Part shown: positions 5,422-58,891 of the stretch, in pieces
Numbering within the stretch: position 1 is the stretch's first letter
How the letters are laid out: each line of letters begins with the position of its first letter
Source of the DNA: Nannocystis sp. RBIL2
Lineage (GTDB): Bacteria > Myxococcota_A > Polyangia > Nannocystales > Nannocystaceae
Length of the DNA: 64,000 bases
Assembly (NCBI RefSeq): GCF_026626745.1
Contig: NZ_JAPNJW010000001.1
Span: 652,311-716,310 of the forward strand
Direction: 5' to 3'
Notes under the pieces: generated by a model
What the model saw: the letters and a program-made list of their open reading frames with translations, nothing else
Database searches by the model: none
What the model was told of the DNA's origin: nothing
Program-made: the position numbers and the translations under genes

Positions 5422-7304
5422 GTGTCCGAGCGCGACCGCTTCCTCGCCTTCGCCGCCCGGGCCGTGCCAGTCGCGTTCGGCGCCCGGCCGGCGCCCGGCG
5501 AGCTCGCCGCGCACTGGCGGGCCGCGACCCAGGCGATCGGCGCTCGCCTCGTCCTCGCCTGCGCGCGCGAGCGCCTCGTCGAATTCGACCTCCAGGACAT
5601 GTCCCTTCGCACATGTTCCTTGAGCCTCCCGCTGCGGCGGCGCCGGGCCTTCGAGCTGCACGCCGCCGACCTCGACGGCCCCGACCTCCCCGACCTCCCC
5701 GACCTCCTCCCGCGCCTCTTGCCCGCGCTCGCCCCCGCGGCTCGCGCCCGGATCGCGCGCGAGCTCGCCGACAGCCGCTGGAACCTCGCGCTCGCCCGCC
5801 TCGCCGCCGACCTGCGCCATCGGACATGCTCCGAAGGCCAGGCTTGGCCCGCCCCGCTCGACCCCGAGAACCTGGTCGTCGACGGCCACCCGTGGCACCC
5901 GATGAGCAAGACCCGGCTCGGCCTGCGCGCCTGGGAGAACCTGCGCCACGGCCCCGACCTCCTGGCCCAGGCGGCAGTCCACGCCGTCGACGTCGCCGCC
6001 GACCACGCCCAGCTGGCCGAGCCGGCCCTCTACGCCGACCTCGCGCGCGCCCTGTTCCCGGCCCCCCCGCCCGGCCTCGTCCGCCTGCCCGTCCACCCCC
6101 TCCAGCTGCGCCGCCTCCCGCGCCTGCTCGGCCCGCTGTGGGGCCGCGAGGTCCGTCCGGCCGGCCTGCCTCCGCTCCACGCGCGCGCCCTGCTCAGCCT
6201 GCGCACCGTCGCCCTCGTCGCGCCCGCGCTGCACCTCAAGCTCGCCGTCGACATCCACACCACCAGCGCGCGGCGCCAGGTCTCGCCCGCCTCGGTGCAC
6301 AACGGCCCGGCGATCGCCGCCCTCCTGGCCGCGATCCAGGCCGCCGACCCGCAGACCCGCCGCGGCCTGCAGATCCAGCCCGACCTCGCCGCCGCCGGCC
6401 TGCACCCCCGCCACGGCCCCGGCGCCGGCCAGCTCGGCGTCGTCCTCCGCCCCGACCCCGCCGCCCTCGCCCAAGAGCTCCACGCCGACCTCACCGCACC
6501 CGCCGACCCATCCGGCGCGACGCCGACCGCCCCCGGCACCGCGCCTGCCCCTGAGCACCTGTCCTCCGCGACATATCCCTCGGAACATGCCCCCGAGGAC
6601 CTGTCCCGTGCGACATATTTATTAGAGCATGTCCGATCGCGCACCCCGCAGCTGGTCGTCTGCGCCGCCCTCGGCGAGCGCCGGCCTGGGGGCGACCTCT
6701 TGTTGCGCGAGCTCGCCGCCGACTACCCCGGCGATCCGCGCGCGCGCCTCGCGGCCTTCTTCGCCGACTACCTCGACCTCCTCGTCCCCGCGGCCCTGCG
6801 CCTGCTCACCGCCCACGGCGTCGCCCTCGAGGCGCATCTACAAAACACCCTCCTCGTCCACGCCGGGCGCCCCTGCGGCTTCGTCGTCCGCGACCTCGGC
6901 GGAGTGCGGCTCCACCGCGGGCGGCTGGCCGCGGCCGGCCACGCCCCCGCGCTCGCGCCCGACTCCTTCACCTTGACCTCCGACCTCGCCGAGGCTCAGG
7001 GCAAGCTGTTACACACCCTCGTGCACGCCCACCTCGCGGCTGTGATCGGTTGGGTCGACGACGCCGGCGGCCCCGACCCCGACGCCCTGTGGCCCGCGGT
7101 GCGGCGGATCTGCCAGCGCGAGTGGGACCGCTGGGCCACCGATCCGGCGCTCGCGCGCGCGTGCGCCGACGATCGCGCGTTCTTCTTCGCGGCTACCTGC
7201 CGCAGCAAGGCGCTGCTGCGCATGCGCATCGACGAACGCGTCAGCGATTACGCCTATACCGAGGTCGCCAACGCGCTCGCCGAGGGGTACTCTTCCCCCG
7301 CCGC

Positions 7305-7308
<4 letters not shown>
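5422..7308 (+). CDS. IucA/IucC-family (NRPS-independent siderophore synthetase-like) protein
   Basis: Family hallmarks are present ([28 protein letters not shown]). The stop overlaps the next start as ATGA. Two in-frame insertions of the CATGYCC repeat lie inside the CDS, at 5595..5619 and 6553..6638. Confidence 0.7.
5595..5619 (+). repeat. CATGYCC-family, 2 units, in-frame in the IucA/IucC CDS
   Basis: GGACATGTCCCTTCGCACATGTTCC. Confidence 0.7.
6553..6638 (+). repeat. CATGYCC-family array, 6 units at exact 14-bp period, in-frame in the IucA/IucC CDS, with an AT-rich segment (CGACATATTTATTAGAGCATGTCC)
   Basis: Core positions fall at 6557/6570/6584/6598/6612/6626. Confidence 0.8.
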
Positions 7309-8237
<929 letters not shown>

Positions 8238-8252
<15 letters not shown>

Positions 8253-8273
8253 ACCCTGTCCCCGGAGACATTG
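8238..8273 (+). repeat. CATGYCC-family array, 3 units, between the prs-like gene and the nadE start
   Basis: GGACATGTCC..CCCTGTCCCC..GAGACATTG; the nadE ATG follows at 8275. Confidence 0.7.
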
Positions 8274-10266: not shown

Positions 10267-10358
10267 GGGCATGTCCCCGAGGACATCCCCGACCCGCGCG
10301 CCCCCCGCGATCACGCCTGAGCCTGCCTGGCGTTTGCGACATGTCCGGGAAGACAGCC
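10267..10358 (+). repeat. two CATGYCC-family sub-arrays (10267..10290 and 10337..10358) between nadE and pcm
   Basis: GGGCATGTCCCCGAGGACATCCCC and GCGACATGTCCGGGAAGACAGCC. Confidence 0.7.
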
Positions 10359-14736: not shown

Positions 14737-14867
14737 CGGCGCGAAATGCGCCGCACGCCTTCGCGGTTTGCTTCCGGGTTCCCTCTCGGAGCGCATCGCC
14801 CCGGGGTGTAGCACGCCGCGGCCCTTCCCGCGGCGGCCGAAGTTGGCTATGGGAACGGGGCAGCACC

Positions 14868-15989
<1,122 letters not shown>

Positions 15990-16085
15990 GCCTGCTGTCG
16001 CTCCGTACCTGTCCCCGAGCACCTGTCCCCGAGCACCTGTCCCCGAGCACCTGTCCCCGAGCACCTGTCCCCGACAACCTGCCCC
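15990..16085 (+). repeat. perfect tandem array (GAGCACCTGTCCCC) x4 plus 2 to 3 degenerate flanking units, in the gcvT-gcvH spacer
   Basis: Four identical 14-mers at 16017..16072; related units at 16005..16016 and 16073..16085. Confidence 0.9.
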
Positions 16086-16096
16086 GAAGTTTCACC

Positions 16097-16486
16097 ATGA
16101 GCAAGATCCCGAGCAACCTCCGCTACACCAAAGACCACGAGTGGGCCCGCCTCGAGGGCGACGGCACCGTCGTCGTCGGCATCACCGACTTCGCGGCCAA
16201 CACCCTCGGCGACATCACCTTCATCGACCTGCGGATCGCCCCCGGCGCCAACCTGACCGCCGGCGCTCTGTTCGGCACGGTCGACTCGGTCAAGTCCGTG
16301 AGCGAGCTGTACGCCCCGGTTGAGGGCGAGGTGGTCGAGGTCAACGGCGAGCTCGACGCCACGCCCGAGGACGTCAACACCGACTGCTACGGCGACGGCT
16401 GGATGGTCCGGATCCGTCCGACCGACGCGGCCGCGTTCGAGCGGCTGCTGACCGCCGAGCAGTACGAGGCCCTCCTCAAGGAGTGA
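16097..16486 (+). CDS. gcvH: glycine cleavage system H protein
   Basis: MSKIPSNLRYTKDHEWARLEG start, with the lipoyl-lysine motif SVKSVSELYAP. The start is trimmed from ORF 15638..16486. Confidence 0.9.
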   Translation: MSKIPSNLRYTKDHEWARLEGDGTVVVGITDFAANTLGDITFIDLRIAPGANLTAGALFGTVDSVKSVSELYAPVEGEVVEVNGELDATPEDVNTDCYGDGWMVRIRPTDAAAFERLLTAEQYEALLKE

Positions 16487-17484
16487 CCGCAGTGGTCGCC
16501 TGGCTCGCGTTCGTCGCTGCGCTCGGCCTCGCGCCGCCCGCGACCTCGACGCCGGCCCCGCAGGGCCCGGCGCCCGCGAGCCCGTCGGCTGCTCCTGCTT
16601 CGACGGGCGGCCAGCCCGAGGGCCCGCGGCCGGCGCCCCCGAGCCCGGCCATCCCCGCCGCGCCCGCGCCCGAGAACATCGAGGCCGAGGGCAACGAGCG
16701 CGCCGAGCCTCCGGGCGGGGTGCCGAAGATCCCCTCGCCGCGGTCCCTCCGGACCTACGGGACAGGTGCTTTCAAACCTGTCTCGGAGGACACCCTCGGA
16801 TCGCTCGGCCTCAAGCGCCAGCGCGACGGCACCATGATGTACGTCGACGCCGGCAAGCGGTTCACCGCCGTGTTCAACGCCGACGGCACCGTGCGCTTCG
16901 GCGACCGCTGGAACCGCGACCAGCACGGCAACAAGGTCAAGGGCTCGCGGGCCGCCATGCGCCAGATCAACATGGCCGGCCTCGGCGTCACGGGCCCGTC
17001 GGAGTGGCTGGTCAAGCTGCAGGACCTGCTCGGCGGCCCCGAGACGGACGCCGCCGCCAAGCGCGAGTTCCTCAACCGGACGCGCGAGCTCCGGACGCAG
17101 ATGGCGATCGAGTTCACCCTGCGGACCTTGACCTACCGCCTCGGCACCCTCGAGCGCGAGCTGTTCGAGCTGTGGAACGCCGGCGGCGACCCGGCGAAGA
17201 AGCGCGAGCTGCTGTTTCAGCGCTGGGACGAGTGCGACGAGGCCTACCGCGTCGAGTTCGCCGGCGAGATCCCCGAGGAGGCCATGTCGGAGATCGATCG
17301 CACCCGCGCCGACGTCGCCGAGCAGGCGCGCCGGATCATCGAGACGTTCGTGCGCCGCCAGCTGCCGCGGTCCGGCCCCGACGGCTTCAGCAAGCGCGAG
17401 CTCGCCGACATGAACGGCCGCCGCACCAGCCGGCAAGAGTTCCGCCCCTACGACATCCACGCGACCCAGAGGACCGCCCAGTGA
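16483..17484 (+). CDS. hypothetical secreted protein
   Basis: The GTG start overlaps the gcvH stop. It has a signal-like N-terminus, a Pro/Ala-rich linker, then a diverse C-terminal domain. An internal hairpin-forming repeat lies at 16751..16796. Confidence 0.55.
   Translation: MTAVVAWLAFVAALGLAPPATSTPAPQGPAPASPSAAPASTGGQPEGPRPAPPSPAIPAAPAPENIEAEGNERAEPPGGVPKIPSPRSLRTYGTGAFKPVSEDTLGSLGLKRQRDGTMMYVDAGKRFTAVFNADGTVRFGDRWNRDQHGNKVKGSRAAMRQINMAGLGVTGPSEWLVKLQDLLGGPETDAAAKREFLNRTRELRTQMAIEFTLRTLTYRLGTLERELFELWNAGGDPAKKRELLFQRWDECDEAYRVEFAGEIPEEAMSEIDRTRADVAEQARRIIETFVRRQLPRSGPDGFSKRELADMNGRRTSRQEFRPYDIHATQRTAQ
16751..16796 (+). repeat. CTGTCC-family units forming the hairpin GACAGGTgctttcaaACCTGTC inside a CDS
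   Basis: A 7-bp inverted repeat with an 8-nt AT-richer loop. Confidence 0.55.
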
Positions 17485-18650
17485 CCCCGATCCTTCCCGA
17501 ACTCCAGCCCCAGCTGGCCCGCTACCGCGACGACTATCCGATCCTCGCCCACTCGATCTACATGAACAGCAACAGCATGGGCGCCATGCCGCGGCAGGCC
17601 GCCGACATGCTGCAGAAGTACGCCGACGACTGGGCCAGCGAGGGCGTCGAGGTGTGGCCGCACTGGCTCGACATCATGCGCGACACCGCCGACAGCGCCG
17701 CGCGCTTCCTGAATGCGCCGCCGGGGCAGACGATCCTCAACCAGAACGTCGCCTACTTCCAGGCCGCCATCGCCTCGTGCCTGGACTATTCGCGCGGCAA
17801 GAACCGCGTCGTCGTCGAGTCGCTGCAGTTCCCCAACGTCCTCTACGTGTGGGAGCGCTTCGGCGACCTCGGGGCCGAGCTCGTGCAGGTGCCCTCGGAC
17901 GACGGCATGACGATCCCGCTAGAGCGCATGCTCGCGGCGATCGACGAGCGGACCGCGATCGTCCCGCTGTCGCACGGCATCTACGTCTCGGGCGCGCTGC
18001 AGGACATCACCGCGATCACGCGCAGGGCCCACGAGGTCGGCGCGCTCGTCATGGTCGACGTCTATCAGACCGCCGGCGCCGTCCCGATCGACGTCGCCGA
18101 GTGGGACGCCGACATCGTCGTCGGCGGCAGCCACAAGTGGCTGTGCGGCGGCCCTGGCACCGCCTTCATGTGGATGAAGCCCGAGCTGCGCGAGCGCCTG
18201 CGGCCGCGCCTCACCGGCTGGATGGGCCACCAGGACCCGTTCGCCTTCGAGCCGCCCCCGATCCGCTTCGCCAGCGACCACCGCCACTTCCTCGCCGGCA
18301 CCCCCTCGATCCCCGCCTACTACGTCGCCCTCGCCGCCTACAAGAACCTGCACGAGATCGGCATCGAGCGGATCCGGGCCCACAACCTCGCCCTGTGCCA
18401 GCGCATCATCGACCGGGCGCAGGACGCCGGCCTCGTCGTCCACTCGCCGATCGACCACGAGCGCCGCACCGGATTCGTCGCCGTCGACTTCGAGGGCAGC
18501 GAGGACGCCAGCAAGCAGCTCATCGAGGAGCGCTACAAGCTCGACTGGCGGCCCAACTGCGGCCTCCGGCTCGGCCCGCACTTCTACAACACCGAGGCCG
18601 AGGTCGAGCGCATGATGGACCGCGTCGTCGCCCTCGCCGGCCGCAGCTAG
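17481..18650 (+). CDS. kynU: kynureninase (class V PLP enzyme)
   Basis: GTG start overlaps the upstream stop. Kynureninase-like motifs are present (YMNSNSMGAMP, GGSHKWLCGGPG, GWMGHQDPFAFEP). Confidence 0.75.
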   Translation: MTPILPELQPQLARYRDDYPILAHSIYMNSNSMGAMPRQAADMLQKYADDWASEGVEVWPHWLDIMRDTADSAARFLNAPPGQTILNQNVAYFQAAIASCLDYSRGKNRVVVESLQFPNVLYVWERFGDLGAELVQVPSDDGMTIPLERMLAAIDERTAIVPLSHGIYVSGALQDITAITRRAHEVGALVMVDVYQTAGAVPIDVAEWDADIVVGGSHKWLCGGPGTAFMWMKPELRERLRPRLTGWMGHQDPFAFEPPPIRFASDHRHFLAGTPSIPAYYVALAAYKNLHEIGIERIRAHNLALCQRIIDRAQDAGLVVHSPIDHERRTGFVAVDFEGSEDASKQLIEERYKLDWRPNCGLRLGPHFYNTEAEVERMMDRVVALAGRS

Positions 18651-18651
18651 C

Positions 18652-18972
18652 ATGCACCCCGACTACGCCCGGATCTACGCCACCATCCAGCGGATCCCCC
18701 GCGGCCGCGTCGCCACCTACGGACAGATCGCCGAGCTCGCCGGCCTGCCCGGGCGCGCCCGCCAGATCGGCTACGCCCTCCACGCCTTGCCCGGGGGCAG
18801 CCCCGTGCCGTGGCAGCGGGTCCTCAACGCCCGCGGCGAGATCAGCCTGTCCGGCCCCTCCGGCGACCGCCAGCGCACCCTGCTGATCGCCGAGGGCGTC
18901 GAGTTCGGCGACAACGGCCGCATCGACCTCGCCGACTATCAATGGCGTCCGCGCGCCGCCCGGCGCCGCTGA
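18652..18972 (+). CDS. MGMT-family DNA-binding protein, probably alkyltransferase-like (Atl)
   Basis: 106 aa. It carries PWQRVLNARGEIS, where Trp replaces the catalytic Cys of the PCHRV motif, as is typical of ATL proteins. Confidence 0.65.
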   Translation: MHPDYARIYATIQRIPRGRVATYGQIAELAGLPGRARQIGYALHALPGGSPVPWQRVLNARGEISLSGPSGDRQRTLLIAEGVEFGDNGRIDLADYQWRPRAARRR

Positions 18973-22188: not shown

Positions 22189-22243
22189 GCATGGTTGCCA
22201 GGACATGTCCTTGATGACATGTCCTCGCGGCCATGCGAATTCT
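22189..22243 (+). repeat. CATGYCC-family array, 4 units at 14-bp period
   Basis: Cores at 22190/22204/22218/22232 (GCATGG, GGACATGTCC, GACATGTCC, GCCATGCG). Confidence 0.8.
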
Positions 22244-22352: not shown

Positions 22353-23447
22353 ATGCCGTCCGCGCTCCTCGCCGCAGTGCTCGCGTTCCAGGTGCCCCAG
22401 CCCCCGTCTGCCGGCGCGATCGAGTGGCAGGCGCCGGCGGGCTGCCCCGATCGCCGCGCGCTGGCCGGGGCGATCGCCGGCCGCCTCGGCCGCGAGCCCG
22501 CCGCCGACGAGGTCTCTCTGGTCGGGCGGGTCGAGCGGGACGGCGCCTCGCAGTACCACCTCGACCTGCGCCTCACCGTCGGCGGTCACGCCCAGACCCG
22601 GCGCCTCAGCGCTCGTCGCTGCGCCGCGCTGGTCGACGCCGCTGCGCTCCTGACCGCCCTCGCGCTCGACCCCACCGCCGCCGAGCGCGGCGGGCCGACC
22701 GATCTGGTCGCGCCGGAGGTCGAGTCCACGCCGACCGAGCCCGAGCCGCCTCCCGGCCCTGAGCCGGCCCCTGGCTCCGAACCCGCCCCGCCCGTCACCC
22801 TCGCCCCCGAGGCCGTCGTCGACGACCCTGCCGCGCCGCTCCAACCGCCCGAACCCGCGCCCGCGCCCGAGCCCGCCGTCGTCACCGCCGACGAGCCGCT
22901 CGCCCCGGCCCCGCCGCCGCGCAAGCGAGGTCCCGGCGCGCTGCTCCGCCTCTCGGCCGGCTTCGAGGTCGGCACCGTCCCCGCGCCCACCGCCGCGCTC
23001 GAGCTCGTCGCCGGCGTCCTGTGGCGGCGCGCTCGCCTCGAGTTCCACGGCGTCCACCTCGTCCCCCAGACCGAGGCGCGCCTGCCCAACGAGGTCCGCG
23101 TCTACCTGCTCGGCGGCGGCGCCCGCGGCTGCGCTCGCCTGTCGCGCGGCCGCTTCGAGTTCCCCCTGTGCGGCGGCGCCGAGCTCGGCGGCCTGCGTGG
23201 CCAGGGTCGCGGTCCGGGCGCGCGCGCGGCCACCGGCCTGTGGGCGGCGGTGCTCGTCTCGGCCGGCGCCACCTGGCGGTTTCACCGGCTGCTCGGCCTC
23301 AGCCTGGCCGCCCAGGGCCTCGTCCGCCTGGCCGCCCCGAGCTTCGACCTGGAGGACACCCCGGAGCCGGTCAACCTGTTCACCAGCGCGCCGGCGAGCC
23401 TGCGCCTGCTCCTCGGCCTCGAATTGCGCCTCGGAGACCCGCGGTGA
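22353..23447 (+). CDS. hypothetical Pro/Ala-rich protein
   Basis: ORF with MPSALLAAVLAF start; it has a central PEPAP-type low-complexity region and a C-terminal hydrophobic region. It is coding-like but has no recognisable domain. Confidence 0.4.
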   Translation: MPSALLAAVLAFQVPQPPSAGAIEWQAPAGCPDRRALAGAIAGRLGREPAADEVSLVGRVERDGASQYHLDLRLTVGGHAQTRRLSARRCAALVDAAALLTALALDPTAAERGGPTDLVAPEVESTPTEPEPPPGPEPAPGSEPAPPVTLAPEAVVDDPAAPLQPPEPAPAPEPAVVTADEPLAPAPPPRKRGPGALLRLSAGFEVGTVPAPTAALELVAGVLWRRARLEFHGVHLVPQTEARLPNEVRVYLLGGGARGCARLSRGRFEFPLCGGAELGGLRGQGRGPGARAATGLWAAVLVSAGATWRFHRLLGLSLAAQGLVRLAAPSFDLEDTPEPVNLFTSAPASLRLLLGLELRLGDPR

Positions 23448-23485
23448 CGGAAACCGTCTCGGCCGGGGACAGCCCCCACGGCCCC

Positions 23486-24979
23486 ATGCTGCTCGCCACC
23501 GACCGAGACGCGCGCTTTCGCGCCATCTACGACCGAGAGTTCCACTTCGTGTGGTCGGCCGCGAAGTACTTCGGCGTCCCCGTGGCCGCCCGCGACGACG
23601 TGGTCCAGGACGTCTTCCTCACCGCCTACCGCCGCTTCGACCAGGTCCACTACCAGGTCTCGGCGCGCGCCTGGCTGTACGGCGTCACCCGCCGCGTCGC
23701 CTCGCACTGGCACCGCGGCGTCGCCCGTCGGACCCGCCGGATCGCCGCCCTCGGCGACCTCACCGGCCACGTCGGCGAGGCCCCGCAGGAGCGCCACGAC
23801 GCCGCCCGCCTGCTCGAGCGCCTGCTCGCCGGCCTGCCTCGCGGCACCCGCGAGGTGTGGGAGCTGACCGAGCTGCTCGGCATGAGCGGCCCCGAGATCG
23901 CCGCCGAGCTCGAGCTGCCGCTCAACACCGTCTACTCGCGGCTCCGCCTCGCGCGCGCCCGCCTGCTCGAGCTGGCCGCCAGCCCCGAGCTGCTGGCCTC
24001 CGAGGTCGCCGAAGGCCGCCGCCGCGAGGCGCCGCCGGCCGACGCCGCCTCGCGCACCTGGGCCGTGATGGTCCCGCTGTTCGGGCACGGCAAGCTCGCC
24101 ACCGTGGCCGCCGCCTGGACCACCGCGCGCGCCGGCGTCATGACCACCCTCGTCGTCGCCGGCGCCACCACCGTCGTCGCGGTCGCCCCGCGCCAGGCCC
24201 CGGGCCGGGCCACCACCGCGCACGTCGAGGACCTGTCCGCAAAGCCATCTGCAGCTCGATCCAGCGGTGACATGTCCCGAGAGACAGCCTCTCTCCCGCC
24301 CGCCGGCATGTCCCGAGAGACAGCGACACTCCCGCCCCCCGACATGTCGCGAGAGACAGCCTCTCTCCCGCCCGCCGGCATGTCCCGAGAGACAGCCTCT
24401 CCCCCGCCCGCCGGCATGTCCCGAGAGACAGCCTCGCCCGCGATCGCCGTCACGTCTCGAGAGACAGCCTCGCTAGCGATCGCCGTCCCGCTCCAGTCCC
24501 ACGCCTCCCCGTTCTCGTTCGCCCACCTCCGCGCGCAGGTCGCCGGCGTGTGGACCCGCGCGACCGCCCCCCTGTCGCCGGGCCCGGCGGCCGACCTATC
24601 CCCGAGGACAGCCTCCCCCGCGCCCGCCGGCCGGGTGACGCGCCCGGCTTACGATCAGCTGCTGTCCCGAGAGACATCCGCGCGCTCGCCCGCCCGCGAC
24701 GACCTCGCCCTCGAGGTCGGCCTCCTCGACCGCGCCCGCGCCCGCCTCGACGCCCGCGACCCGGCAGGCGCCGCCCAGCTCCTCGACGCTCACGCGCGCC
24801 AGTTCCCGCGCGGCGCCCTCGTCGACGCCCGCGAGGCCGCCGCGGTCGAGCTCCTGTGCCTGCAAGGCCGCCCCGCCGACGCCGCGACCGCCGCCCTGCG
24901 CCTGGCCGCGCGCCTGCCCGACTCGGTGCTCGCCCGCCGCTTCGAGCGCTTCGTCTGCCCCGACGACGAGCCGCGCTGA
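23486..24979 (+). CDS. ECF sigma factor fused to (or read through into) a TM segment and a repeat-containing C-terminal domain
   Basis: Sigma-70 region 2 (DVVQDVFLTAYRRFDQ) and region 4 (GMSGPEIAAELELPLNTVYSRLRLARARL) are present. Then comes a TM-like stretch (VMVPLFGHGKLATVAAAWTTARAGVMTTLVVAGA). After that comes 6 x 12-aa tandem repeats MSRETASLPPAG, with no stop before 24979. Confidence 0.65.
   Translation: MLLATDRDARFRAIYDREFHFVWSAAKYFGVPVAARDDVVQDVFLTAYRRFDQVHYQVSARAWLYGVTRRVASHWHRGVARRTRRIAALGDLTGHVGEAPQERHDAARLLERLLAGLPRGTREVWELTELLGMSGPEIAAELELPLNTVYSRLRLARARLLELAASPELLASEVAEGRRREAPPADAASRTWAVMVPLFGHGKLATVAAAWTTARAGVMTTLVVAGATTVVAVAPRQAPGRATTAHVEDLSAKPSAARSSGDMSRETASLPPAGMSRETATLPPPDMSRETASLPPAGMSRETASPPPAGMSRETASPAIAVTSRETASLAIAVPLQSHASPFSFAHLRAQVAGVWTRATAPLSPGPAADLSPRTASPAPAGRVTRPAYDQLLSRETSARSPARDDLALEVGLLDRARARLDARDPAGAAQLLDAHARQFPRGALVDAREAAAVELLCLQGRPADAATAALRLAARLPDSVLARRFERFVCPDDEPR
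24272..24487 (+). repeat. 6 x 36-bp in-frame tandem repeats (ATGTCCCGAGAGACAGCCTCTCTCCCGCCCGCCGGC), each with a CATGTCCC core and a GAGAGacagcCTCTC hairpin
   Basis: Seen in the sequence. They encode a 6 x MSRETASLPPAG-like repeat in the ECF sigma CDS. Confidence 0.9.
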
Positions 24980-26987: not shown

Positions 26988-27050
26988 ACCATGCCCTCTC
27001 GGCCATGTCCTGGCAGACATGTCCCCGACGACATGTCGCCGAGGCCATCC
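26988..27050 (+). repeat. CATGYCC-family array, 5 units at exact 14-bp period
   Basis: CAT at 26990/27004/27018/27032/27046. Confidence 0.85.
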
Positions 27051-41102: not shown

Positions 41103-41186
41103 AGGACATGTCCTCATGGACATGCCCCCGAGGGCATGCCCGTACGAACATGCCCATGAGGCCATGTCCCTCAGGACACCTCACAG
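41103..41186 (+). repeat. CATGYCC-family array, 6 units at exact 14-bp period, between convergent genes
   Basis: CAT at 41107/41121/41135/41149/41163 and CAC at 41177. Confidence 0.9.
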
Positions 41187-44140: not shown

Positions 44141-44224
44141 CGAGCATGCCCCTCACGCCATGCCCCTCGTGCCATGTCCCTCGCGCCATGTCCCCGAGGA
44201 CATGCCCCGATCGACATGCCCTTC
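44141..44224 (+). repeat. CATGYCC-family array, 6 units at exact 14-bp period, between convergent genes
   Basis: CAT at 44145/44159/44173/44187/44201/44215. Confidence 0.9.
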
Positions 44225-47434: not shown

Positions 47435-47460
47435 GCCCTGTCCTTCGGGACAGGCTCTTG
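47435..47460 (+). terminator. stem-loop downstream of rplC (CCCTGTCC-TTCG-GGACAGG), weak T tail
   Basis: Inverted repeat seen directly in the sequence, though without a strong U-tract. The stem is itself a CTGTCC/GGACAG repeat-family unit. Confidence 0.35.
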
Positions 47461-48146: not shown

Positions 48147-48220
48147 GGGACATGTCTTCCGCGACATGTCCCAAAGCACCTTGCCGCCGGGACATGTCCT
48201 CCACGACATGCCCGAGCGCC
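48147..48220 (+). repeat. CATGYCC-family array, 5 units at 14-bp period, between rlmE and the pseudogene
   Basis: CAT at 48151/48165/(CAC 48179)/48193/48207. Confidence 0.85.
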
Positions 48221-56072: not shown

Positions 56073-56678
56073 ATGAACATCGACCTCGCCAAATTTTTGT
56101 CCGTCGCCGCCCTCATGAGCCAGGGCGTCGCCACAGCCGGCTGCACGATCAACCTCGGCGGTCTCTCCGATACCAACATCGGCCCCGAGACGACCACGAC
56201 CGAGAGCACCGCCGGCACCACGGACGACACGACCAGCACCGGCACGGCGGGCGAGACGACCGACGGCACCGACACCGGCACCAGCGCGCCGACGACCACC
56301 GAAACCCCGACCAGCACCACCGAGGCCACCGCGGGCACCACCGAGGCCACCGCGGGCACCACCGGCGAGGGCTTCGTCTGCAGCGACGGTACCGCACTCG
56401 AGAACCCGGCGTGGGTCTGCGACGAGAACCCCGACTGTCCTGACGGCTCCGACGAGGTCAGCGGCTGCGGCCTCGAGGCCTTCACCTGCACCGACAAGAA
56501 GGAGATCCCCGCGACCTGGGCCTGCGACGAGGTCCCCGACTGCCTCGACAACTCCGACGAGGTCACCGGCTGCGGCCTCGAGGCCTTCCTCTGCACCAAC
56601 GGCACCGAGATCCCGGCGACCTGGAAGTGCGACATGGCCGACGACTGCCCCGACGGCGCCGACGAGGCCGACTGCTGA
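56073..56678 (+). CDS. lipoprotein with three LDL-receptor class A (LDLa) repeats
   Basis: Lipobox (ATAGC) and a Thr-rich linker, followed by 3 LDLa-like units (C.DG..IP..W.CD...DC.DGSDE). Confidence 0.65.
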   Translation: MNIDLAKFLSVAALMSQGVATAGCTINLGGLSDTNIGPETTTTESTAGTTDDTTSTGTAGETTDGTDTGTSAPTTTETPTSTTEATAGTTEATAGTTGEGFVCSDGTALENPAWVCDENPDCPDGSDEVSGCGLEAFTCTDKKEIPATWACDEVPDCLDNSDEVTGCGLEAFLCTNGTEIPATWKCDMADDCPDGADEADC

Positions 56679-58135: not shown

Positions 58136-58219
58136 CCAACATGCCCATTCGAGCATGCTCTATTAAACATGCCCCGGCAGACATGCCCTTCCGAGCATGC
58201 CCGATCGTTCATGTTGCCG
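58136..58219 (+). repeat. CATGYCC-family array, 6 units at exact 14-bp period (includes the AT-rich unit CTCTATTAAACATGCCCC), between trpF and the Mur ligase gene
   Basis: CAT at 58140/58154/58168/58182/58196/58210. Confidence 0.9.
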
Positions 58220-58838: not shown

Positions 58839-58891
58839 GCGGGTACCGACCTGTCCTTCTCGCCCTGTCCAGAAGAACATGTCCCCGAAGC
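58832..58891 (+). repeat. CATGYCC/CTGTCC-family array, 4 units, overlapping the trpF start
   Basis: Cores at 58836/58851/58865/58878. Confidence 0.7.

Follow-up and report, generated by a model that had tools for sequence, protein, structure and literature searches.

Does the perfect tandem repeat lying between gcvT and gcvH in Nannocystis sp. RBIL2 regulate this operon, or is it a passenger? We analyzed a window of 64,000 nt of this genome, with a GC content of 72.5%, and all coordinates given below are positions within this window. The upstream gene, gcvT (14868 to 15989, plus strand), encodes an aminomethyltransferase (Pfam GCV_T, 8.6e-95; GCV_T_C, 1.1e-21) that is an exact match to WP_267701861.1 of Nannocystis sp. 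RBIL2 and is 97% identical to its N. pusilla counterpart. Its stop codon TGA occupies 15987 to 15989 and the plus-strand gcvH (16097 to 16486; Pfam GCV_H, 8.6e-40) starts with the ATG at 16097, leaving a non-coding spacer of 107 bp (15990 to 16096), which is C-rich and G-poor on the plus strand (51 C and 22 G). In this spacer, GAGCACCTGTCCCC forms four mismatch-free tandem copies (16017 to 16072, 56 bp), while the perfect 14-bp periodicity spans 68 bp (16007 to 16074) and TRF delimits 5.9 copies of period 14 with 95% matches and a score of 141 (16007 to 16087). Seven in-register units in all occupy 15990 to 16087, from the gcvT stop codon to the gcvH ribosome-binding region. They begin with two degenerate 5' units on the plus strand, gcctGCTGTCGctc and cgtaCCTGTCCcc (15990 to 16016), delimited by the unit register and by strain comparison and unchanged between strains; the weak unit gcctGCTGTCGctc lies directly 3' of the stop codon, and the degenerate flanking unit gtACCTGTCCCC is found at 16005 to 16016, 5' of the perfect copies. 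The four perfect units follow, then a degenerate 3' unit, GAcaACCTG-CCCC (16073 to 16085), kept in all close strains, and finally the ribosome-binding region GAAGtttcacc (16086 to 16096), likewise conserved in close strains, with a weak SD-like GAAG 7 nt 5' of the ATG. The sequence-only reading of this DNA, which had described a perfect fourfold 14-mer array with degenerate flanks in a 107-bp gcvT-gcvH spacer, is thus borne out by the sequence, by TRF, and by Pfam.

The array stands at the sole uncoupled junction of the operon. Downstream of gcvH lie an unknown 333-aa protein (16483 to 17484), a class V aminotransferase that also gives a weak GDC-P match (17481 to 18650), and an MGMT-like protein (18652 to 18972), and from gcvH onward these genes follow one another with 4-nt overlaps or a 1-nt gap. 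No sigma-70-type promoter and no intrinsic terminator were found in or around the spacer, no gcvP was found adjacent to gcvT or gcvH (14737 to 14867 and 16483 to 18972), and no tRNA was found in the window. Rfam returned no gathering-threshold match over the whole window, including no glycine riboswitch, and none 5' of gcvT (14737 to 14867). The possibility that the spacer is coding was rejected: the reading frame of gcvH extends without a stop across the array (ORF 15638 to 16486), but the length differences between strains are not multiples of 3. As a separate observation, TGAGCCTG, that is, a stop codon followed by GCCTG, occurs 7 times in the window versus 2.2 expected, a mild enrichment, and is tied to arrays in only three of these seven cases (10252, 10318, and the gcvT stop at 15987), each immediately 5' of cores of the repeat family described below.

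To place the array in time, orthologous gcvT-gcvH junctions were compared over graded relatives, whose GcvT identity to the window runs from 97% to 67%. Spacers of 107, 79, 79, 67, and 82 bp, with 3 to 6 units, were found in five close genomes: RBIL2 itself (107 bp; a gta unit, the GAGCA unit four times, and a gacaa unit), N. pusilla GCA_026626665 (GcvT 97%; 79 bp, 4 units), N. pusilla GCA_051105105 (79 bp, 4 units, the gcgta unit being the duplicated one), N. exedens (67 bp, 3 units), and N. punicea (82 bp, 4 units). Farther out, the array is present in the metagenome relative L082 (GcvT 88%; 117 bp, about 7 decayed units), in L089 (84%; 65 bp, 4 units), in L083 to L088 (80%; 75 bp, 4 to 5 units), and in L090 (79%; 69 bp, 3 units), and it is absent from the Nannocystis MAG L091 (72%; 30 bp) and from Enhygromyxa (L092, 67%; 9 bp). 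Because it is present in relatives down to 79% GcvT identity and absent at 72% and 67%, the comparison indicates that the gcvT-gcvH junction acquired the array within the genus, growing from 9 to 30 nt to 65 to 117 nt, and that the array has been kept since with changes of length by whole units.

The gain and loss of whole units, as read from these alignments, fit replication slippage, i.e., VNTR behavior. The window differs from N. pusilla by an indel of exactly 28 bp (two units), located in the perfect copies, the internal part of the array that expanded recently, and the remaining region is 93 to 96% identical; in the two N. pusilla strains, both with 79 bp, a different internal unit is duplicated in each. 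Terminal units and the ribosome-binding region are stable between close strains, and it is the internal units that expand, contract, and are homogenized. In a set of 34 distinct units drawn from nine genomes, conservation is 76 to 85% for the core A-CCTGTCC and 29 to 53% for the linkers. A perfect tandem of 56 bp is far beyond chance, and the array is not an assembly artifact, since the same array is found with other unit numbers in independent Nannocystis assemblies. The proposal of a recent, VNTR-like slippage expansion made from the sequence alone is upheld by these whole-unit differences, and the opposite outcome that it had envisaged, an array length fixed across strains, does not hold among the related genomes compared. 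The spacer repeat could serve as a strain-typing marker for Nannocystis. One of the N. pusilla records (GCA_051105105, L215, 4202 to 4590) leaves gcvH uncalled, with the ORF and its start context (caccATGTCCaag) intact.

What the sequence-only reading missed is that the gcv array is a local copy of a lineage-specific repeat family dispersed in Nannocystis; by itself the array is ordinary, and the interest lies in the family behind it. In addition to the gcv array, TRF picked up further arrays of period 14 with similar units in the window. The heptamer CATGTCC occurs 49 times in the window versus 6.4 +/- 2.5 expected, often as part of the palindrome GGACATGTCC. Fifty family units, with the gcv array left out, give the consensus aGGACATGYCCyyn, a 14-bp unit made of the 10-bp quasi-palindrome GGACATGYCC and about 4 free bases. 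Of 84 same-strand pairs of C[AC]TG[TC]CC lying within 60 bp of each other, 78 are spaced by 14, 28, 42, or 56 bp, a pattern left unchanged by masking the gcv array; when CATG cores only are measured, a distance of 13 or 15 bp is seen in about 10% of adjacent pairs, which makes the phasing strong and not absolute. In the family register, the gcv unit reads AGCACCTGTCCCCG, departing from the consensus by two substitutions, G to C and A to C; over the first 11 bases it is identical to the unit at 6558, the two having AGCACCTGTCC in common. That CCTG and CATG cores belong to one family is argued by their presence in the same arrays and in the same phase (6544 to 6634, 8238 to 8261, and 58850 to 58884).

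The family lies predominantly outside genes. Using a GC3-based gene map of the window to split coding from non-coding DNA, we found that the 14% non-coding share holds 53% of all cores, and that about half of the intergenic gaps contain family arrays; by gap type, arrays occupy 2 of the 4 between convergent genes, about 13 of the 27 between tandem genes, and 1 of the 6 between divergent genes. About 19 of the 56 genes, on either strand, have a core or an array within 70 nt past the stop codon; many arrays start 0 to 50 nt past stop codons and some are fused to the stop itself, e.g., TGA-CCTGTCC. Orthologous arrays are present in N. pusilla, while in the 84% relative L089 some are present and some absent, from which we infer that arrays have been gained over time. 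The phasing was absent from 80 control loci, including many high-GC Myxococcota. Genuine 14-bp arrays were also found in high-GC metagenome contigs, one of which comes from an uncultured lineage with no named relatives other than Nannocystis, at 35 to 37% identity. Any genome-wide statement on the family is drawn from these 64 kb and a handful of other loci. Our literature search found no description of the motif, of the family, or of Nannocystis repeats, and this class of 14-bp-phased intergenic arrays in Nannocystis and at least one uncultured relative is apparently undescribed.

Two apparent extensions of the family were discarded. Matches to three phased cores in low-GC metagenomes were mostly (CATGCCC)n heptamer microsatellites, which match since 14 is twice 7, and a link to viral DNA came down to one trivial two-unit match to the family and none for the gcv unit. 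The (CATGCCC)n microsatellites of many low-GC contigs (40 to 50% GC; e.g., L095, L098, L119, L125, L134, and L148), with TATGCCC and AATGCCC variants and often intergenic, are unrelated to the Nannocystis arrays and form a conspicuous repeat class of their own.

Several members lie close to gene boundaries on the plus strand. In front of the NAD synthase gene, GGACATGTCC and CCCTGTCCCC lie 13 nt 5' of the start (8238 to 8261), and this member is conserved in L089, the 84% relative, as well as in N. pusilla; an array 3' of a CCP_MauG gene (22201 to 22224) is conserved in N. pusilla. One member, with mixed CCTG and CATG cores in a single 14-bp phase (6544 to 6634, plus strand), is inserted in frame in an IucA/IucC-FhuF siderophore-synthetase ORF (5422 to 7308), where it lies in the inter-domain linker (aa 375 to 405) and reads as a 14-aa repeat; L089 has just two units there, and the indels of N. 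pusilla sum to 3 bp, so that the frame is kept. In the same ORF, a palindrome at 5595 to 5604 is also coding (QDMSLRTCS) and conserved. In an uncultured Nannocystis-related organism (75% GC, skew of +0.12 to +0.15), 14-bp arrays are found inside very long ORFs of a simple GC3 gene model (L106, 1352 to 6655; L126, 9127 to 12654), which may represent mis-merged genes or additional in-frame insertions.

The orientation of the arrays follows the chromosome strand. GC skew, (G-C)/(G+C), is -0.12 over the window and -0.15 in its non-coding part, uniform and unusually strong, and lies between -0.07 and -0.21 in the syntenic loci of relatives. GC3 skew is -0.35 in plus-strand genes and, in plus-strand terms, still negative for minus-strand genes; as the third-position skew keeps its sign in both gene orientations, a large component of it is tied to the strand, as with replication. 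Nevertheless, 63% of the coding bases are on the C-rich strand. Non-palindromic cores are distributed 90:18 between the plus and minus strands overall and 45:7 in non-coding DNA, where composition alone predicts about 2:1. All asymmetric arrays of the window are plus oriented, including those between minus-strand genes, such as 26990 to 27024, with its cores on the plus strand, and those starting at 58140 and 58850. At independent loci (L099, L106, L126, and L157), the CATGYCC strand is again the C-rich strand, even with flanking genes in the opposite orientation, which brings the asymmetric arrays concordant with the skew to about 20 of 21. Polarity thus follows strand composition and not transcription, which counts against a function of the asymmetric forms as sense RNA, and its excess over what skew alone predicts hints at a DNA-level process. 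A region of N. punicea (CP114040.1, 9.22 to 9.24 Mb; L216), meant as a replichore flip comparison, was uninformative in this respect, with a skew of +0.01 and zero phased arrays; it has a GC content of 69.7% and carries rve_3 integrase fragments, and DNA that is unskewed or of recent acquisition may lack arrays.

The sequence of the core has direct consequences for folding. A direct repeat of a self-complementary core is an inverted repeat too, and CATG arrays are predicted to form strong hairpins from both strands. Compared with their own shuffles, on the plus and minus strands, respectively, z scores of -4.8 and -5.8 were obtained for the canonical CATG-core array that fills the gap between convergent genes at 41104 to 41169 (no orientation assigned), -2.0 and -4.8 for the six CATGYCCC cores with exact 14-bp spacing and divergent linkers between convergent genes at 44145 to 44221 (plus strand), and -2.5 and -6.3 for the array between two minus-strand genes at 58140 to 58202, whose cores are on the C-rich plus strand. 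The palindromic-core array 11 nt past a stop codon at 48148 to 48213 (no orientation assigned) gave -5.7, and a further CATG array gave -3.9. Replacing CATG by CCTG weakens canonical arrays by 10 to 13 kcal/mol. As for the gcv units, their two differences from the family consensus leave them not self-complementary: the gcv array alone has a z score of +1.35 on the sense strand, and the sense spacer in its context has a z score of +2.27, none of 200 shuffles folding less well. The minimum free energy (MFE) of the spacer, -11.4 kcal/mol, falls to -23.6 kcal/mol when each gcv core is changed from C to A and to -46.1 kcal/mol when the consensus GGACATGTCC is restored in the four perfect units. These predictions argue that the gcv array is a disarmed, structure-less derivative of a hairpin-forming repeat. 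Its unfolded state could reflect counter-selection of a hairpin inside an operon or inheritance from the founding unit, and the sequence data fit either. Hairpin stability was rejected as the cause of the strict phasing, 1-nt indels in the linkers costing at most 1 to 2 kcal/mol. Inverted CCTGTCC cores at 47437 to 47454, 18 nt past a stop codon, make a tight hairpin (gcCCTGTCCttcgGGACAGGc), so that the non-self-complementary core variant can still form a terminator-like stem when inverted.

Would the number of units matter for gcvH translation? The opening energy, computed from -20 to +12 around the gcvH start, is predicted to be 3.8 to 4.4 kcal/mol with the native flanks and 0 to 8 internal units, versus 8.2 kcal/mol with the array deleted, 8.8 +/- 3.1 kcal/mol with a mononucleotide-shuffled array, and 11.1 +/- 3.0 kcal/mol with random filler of 72.5% GC. 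Being flat with unit number and higher with shuffle or filler, these values predict no effect of unit number and an effect of G-poor composition. At natural junctions, values spread from 2.2 to 11.3 kcal/mol among the other relatives with an array and are 8.0 and 11.6 kcal/mol where the array is lacking; the idea of the array as a conserved opener of the gcvH ribosome-binding site, true for RBIL2 and N. pusilla, fails in these other relatives and was discarded. The sequence-only reading had proposed that the array modulates translational coupling between gcvT and gcvH and had called for structure prediction around the gcvH ribosome-binding site; as modeled, accessibility does not depend on unit number, and 65 to 117 nt would leave no termination-reinitiation coupling. 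Nor does a regulatory role specific to gcv find support, the array belonging to a family dispersed over about half of the gaps of the window and the outgroup junctions being 9 to 30 bp long and array-less.

Altogether, we consider it probable that the array belongs, as a slippage-prone member, to a lineage-specific REP/BIME-like family, and that it was put into a once-tight operon junction and is transcribed as an unstructured C-rich linker, with a copy number that is near-neutral. Folding in silico shows the transcribed gcv copy as an unstructured, C-rich and G-poor linker and gives long hairpins for canonical members, whichever strand is folded. Transcription would still read through from gcvT into gcvH, gcvH would be translated by independent initiation at its own weak ribosome-binding site and not by coupling to gcvT, and unit number would be close to neutral, while canonical arrays probably act as REP/BIME-like 3'-end hairpins that stabilize or terminate transcripts. 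We therefore read the array as most probably a passenger VNTR and not a gcv regulator. Nevertheless, this explanation does not account for everything: the polarity exceeds the skew, hairpin energy does not explain the phasing, and a low opening energy at the ribosome-binding site is not general in relatives. Moreover, the contrast between conserved cores and divergent linkers in the gcv units is not obviously expected of a neutral passenger, though slippage turnover could maintain it.

Part of these residual features would be accommodated if an abundant dimeric protein, nucleoid-associated or linked to replication or termination, bound GGACATGTCC, i.e., TGTCC-N4-GGACA, as head-to-tail operators and loaded cooperatively in the 14-bp register, the tandem forms at issue being (GGACATGTCCNNNN)n and the gcv-type (GAGCACCTGTCCCC)n, the latter as a half-site array of the same putative system. 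The protein-binding platform that the sequence-only reading had also envisaged would then be a property of the whole family. The palindromic core with its free linkers, the conservation of core and register across lineages while linkers diverge, spacings at multiples of the unit, the inability of hairpin energetics to account for phasing, a polarity set by the chromosome strand and not by transcription, and the location of arrays 3' of genes in either orientation and between convergent genes would all be compatible with such binding. We nonetheless regard it as unlikely: the motif matches none that is known and no candidate protein emerged, about 10% of adjacent pairs are off phase by the CATG-only measure, and the asymmetric decay of one half-site and the tolerance of arrays in frame inside ORFs look like drifting repeats; furthermore, a 14-bp step sets successive dimers 120 degrees apart, an arrangement for which we know of no precedent. 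In its broadest form, 14-bp-phased GGACATGYCC arrays would make up, across the genomes of Nannocystaceae, a recognition system whose orientation is set by the replication strand, with a putative dedicated dimeric protein polymerizing at gene ends, a speculation to which we attach rather little credence. If it were true, the arrays might serve to insulate supercoiling or converging transcription, or else to steer a process linked to replication or segregation in the strongly skewed chromosomes of 12 to 13 Mb, and half-site-only arrays such as that of gcv would be functional polar variants and not decayed copies.

Explanations acting on the gcv transcript are weaker. The spacer RNA could recruit Rho as a tunable rut site, a longer array giving a stronger attenuation of gcvH and the downstream genes and thereby setting the T:H ratio. 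The untranslated 107-nt spacer does have the features of a rut site (at least about 70 nt, unstructured, with C in large excess over G), its length is within the range that Rho needs, its sense RNA is less structured than shuffles, and it is free of an intrinsic terminator. However, members downstream of minus-strand genes give G-rich RNA, which excludes Rho loading as the family's function, the strong skew makes every plus-strand transcript in this window C-rich, and attenuation has no obvious rationale where GcvH is needed stoichiometrically with GcvT; we thus hold Rho loading to be quite improbable. A contingency switch, in which slippage would change spacer length and turn gcvH translation on or off via coupling or the context of the ribosome-binding site, could draw on the copy-number differences between strains and on the end of the array 12 nt from the ATG. 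Yet the unit proximal to the ribosome-binding site and GAAGtt(t/c)cacc are constant, the variation being limited to internal units; accessibility is predicted not to change between 0 and 8 units, the non-coding array is apparently promoterless, the spacers are far too long for termination-reinitiation coupling, and gcvH, a housekeeping gene, is not a typical contingency locus. Phase variation at this locus therefore seems very improbable to us.

Returning to the passenger reading that we favor, REP/BIME elements of enterobacteria and pseudomonads offer the closest comparison in several respects. Like them, the Nannocystis family is dispersed, short, palindromic, clustered, extragenic yet transcribed, concentrated past stop codons and between operon genes, and probably neutral or mildly useful as 3'-end structures. 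Stable stem-loops, as in REP elements, are predicted on either strand for the canonical CATG arrays but not for the gcv array on the sense strand. Unlike REP, an imperfect palindrome of 20 to 40 bp in alternating orientation, the family has a 10-bp core in a strict 14-bp tandem register, its asymmetric forms are polar to the C-rich strand, and the gcv copy is devoid of a palindrome. REP elements have a cognate RAYT (Y1 transposase) and a conserved 5' tetranucleotide; no GTAG-like 5' flank was evident in the unit profile of the family. The MIRU-VNTRs of Mycobacterium resemble the gcv array as tandem units between operon genes of a high-GC genome, at many loci and with strain-variable copy number. 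MIRU units, of about 46 to 100 bp, are oriented with the operon and contain small ORFs overlapping the flanking stops and starts, whereas the Nannocystis arrays have a 14-bp unit, which is not a multiple of 3, are oriented by chromosome strand, and show no coding or coupling logic.

Simple-sequence contingency loci of Haemophilus and Neisseria, as well as ordinary bacterial minisatellites, share with the gcv array whole-unit slippage and perfect internal units between degenerate flanks. The gcv unit, however, is longer than the usual 1 to 9 nt, stands at a housekeeping operon junction, has no predicted effect on expression through its number, and contains a core motif that recurs at dozens of further loci. 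Operator arrays bound in tandem by cooperative repressors (MetJ met-boxes, Fur hexamer arrays, and omega/ParR heptad or iteron arrays) have short palindromic or direct units placed head to tail, a fixed register, and conserved cores like the family, but they are found at a few specific promoters or centromeres, whereas the Nannocystis arrays occupy about half of the intergenic gaps, including convergent gene ends.

For the gcv operon, our result is deflationary, in that the length of the repeat probably matters little. For the family, the strict 14-bp register, the self-complementary core, the polarity to the C-rich strand, and the occasional in-frame insertion into protein linkers are traits that together make it a REP-like system of different architecture, suited to asking how dispersed repeats arise, spread, and get disarmed in operons. 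The Nannocystis group is known for very large genomes and natural products. Gene callers read through family arrays, which affects the resulting gene calls, and assembly is made harder by them as well; the arrays are also candidates for shaping mRNA 3' ends.

Other repeats of the window lie inside ORFs or stand apart from the family. A related 36-bp composite repeat (CATGTCCCGAGAGACAGCC...) is present in 5.6 copies at 24271 to 24471 (plus strand), in the C-terminal extension of an ECF sigma ORF (23444 to 24979) whose sigma domains end at aa 174; it contains the family core and RGACAGCC, and the composite CMTGTCC-N4-RGACAGCC is also found at 10340 and 13551 and in relatives. At 56412 to 56667, TRF detected 2.4 copies of a 105-bp repeat (score, 321) whose consensus resembles a Cys/Asp-rich module of calcium-binding type (WDCDEDPDCLDGSDE...), a Pfam scan of one frame giving no match, and close to it, at 56314 to 56364, TRF detected a perfect 21-bp repeat in 2.4 copies.
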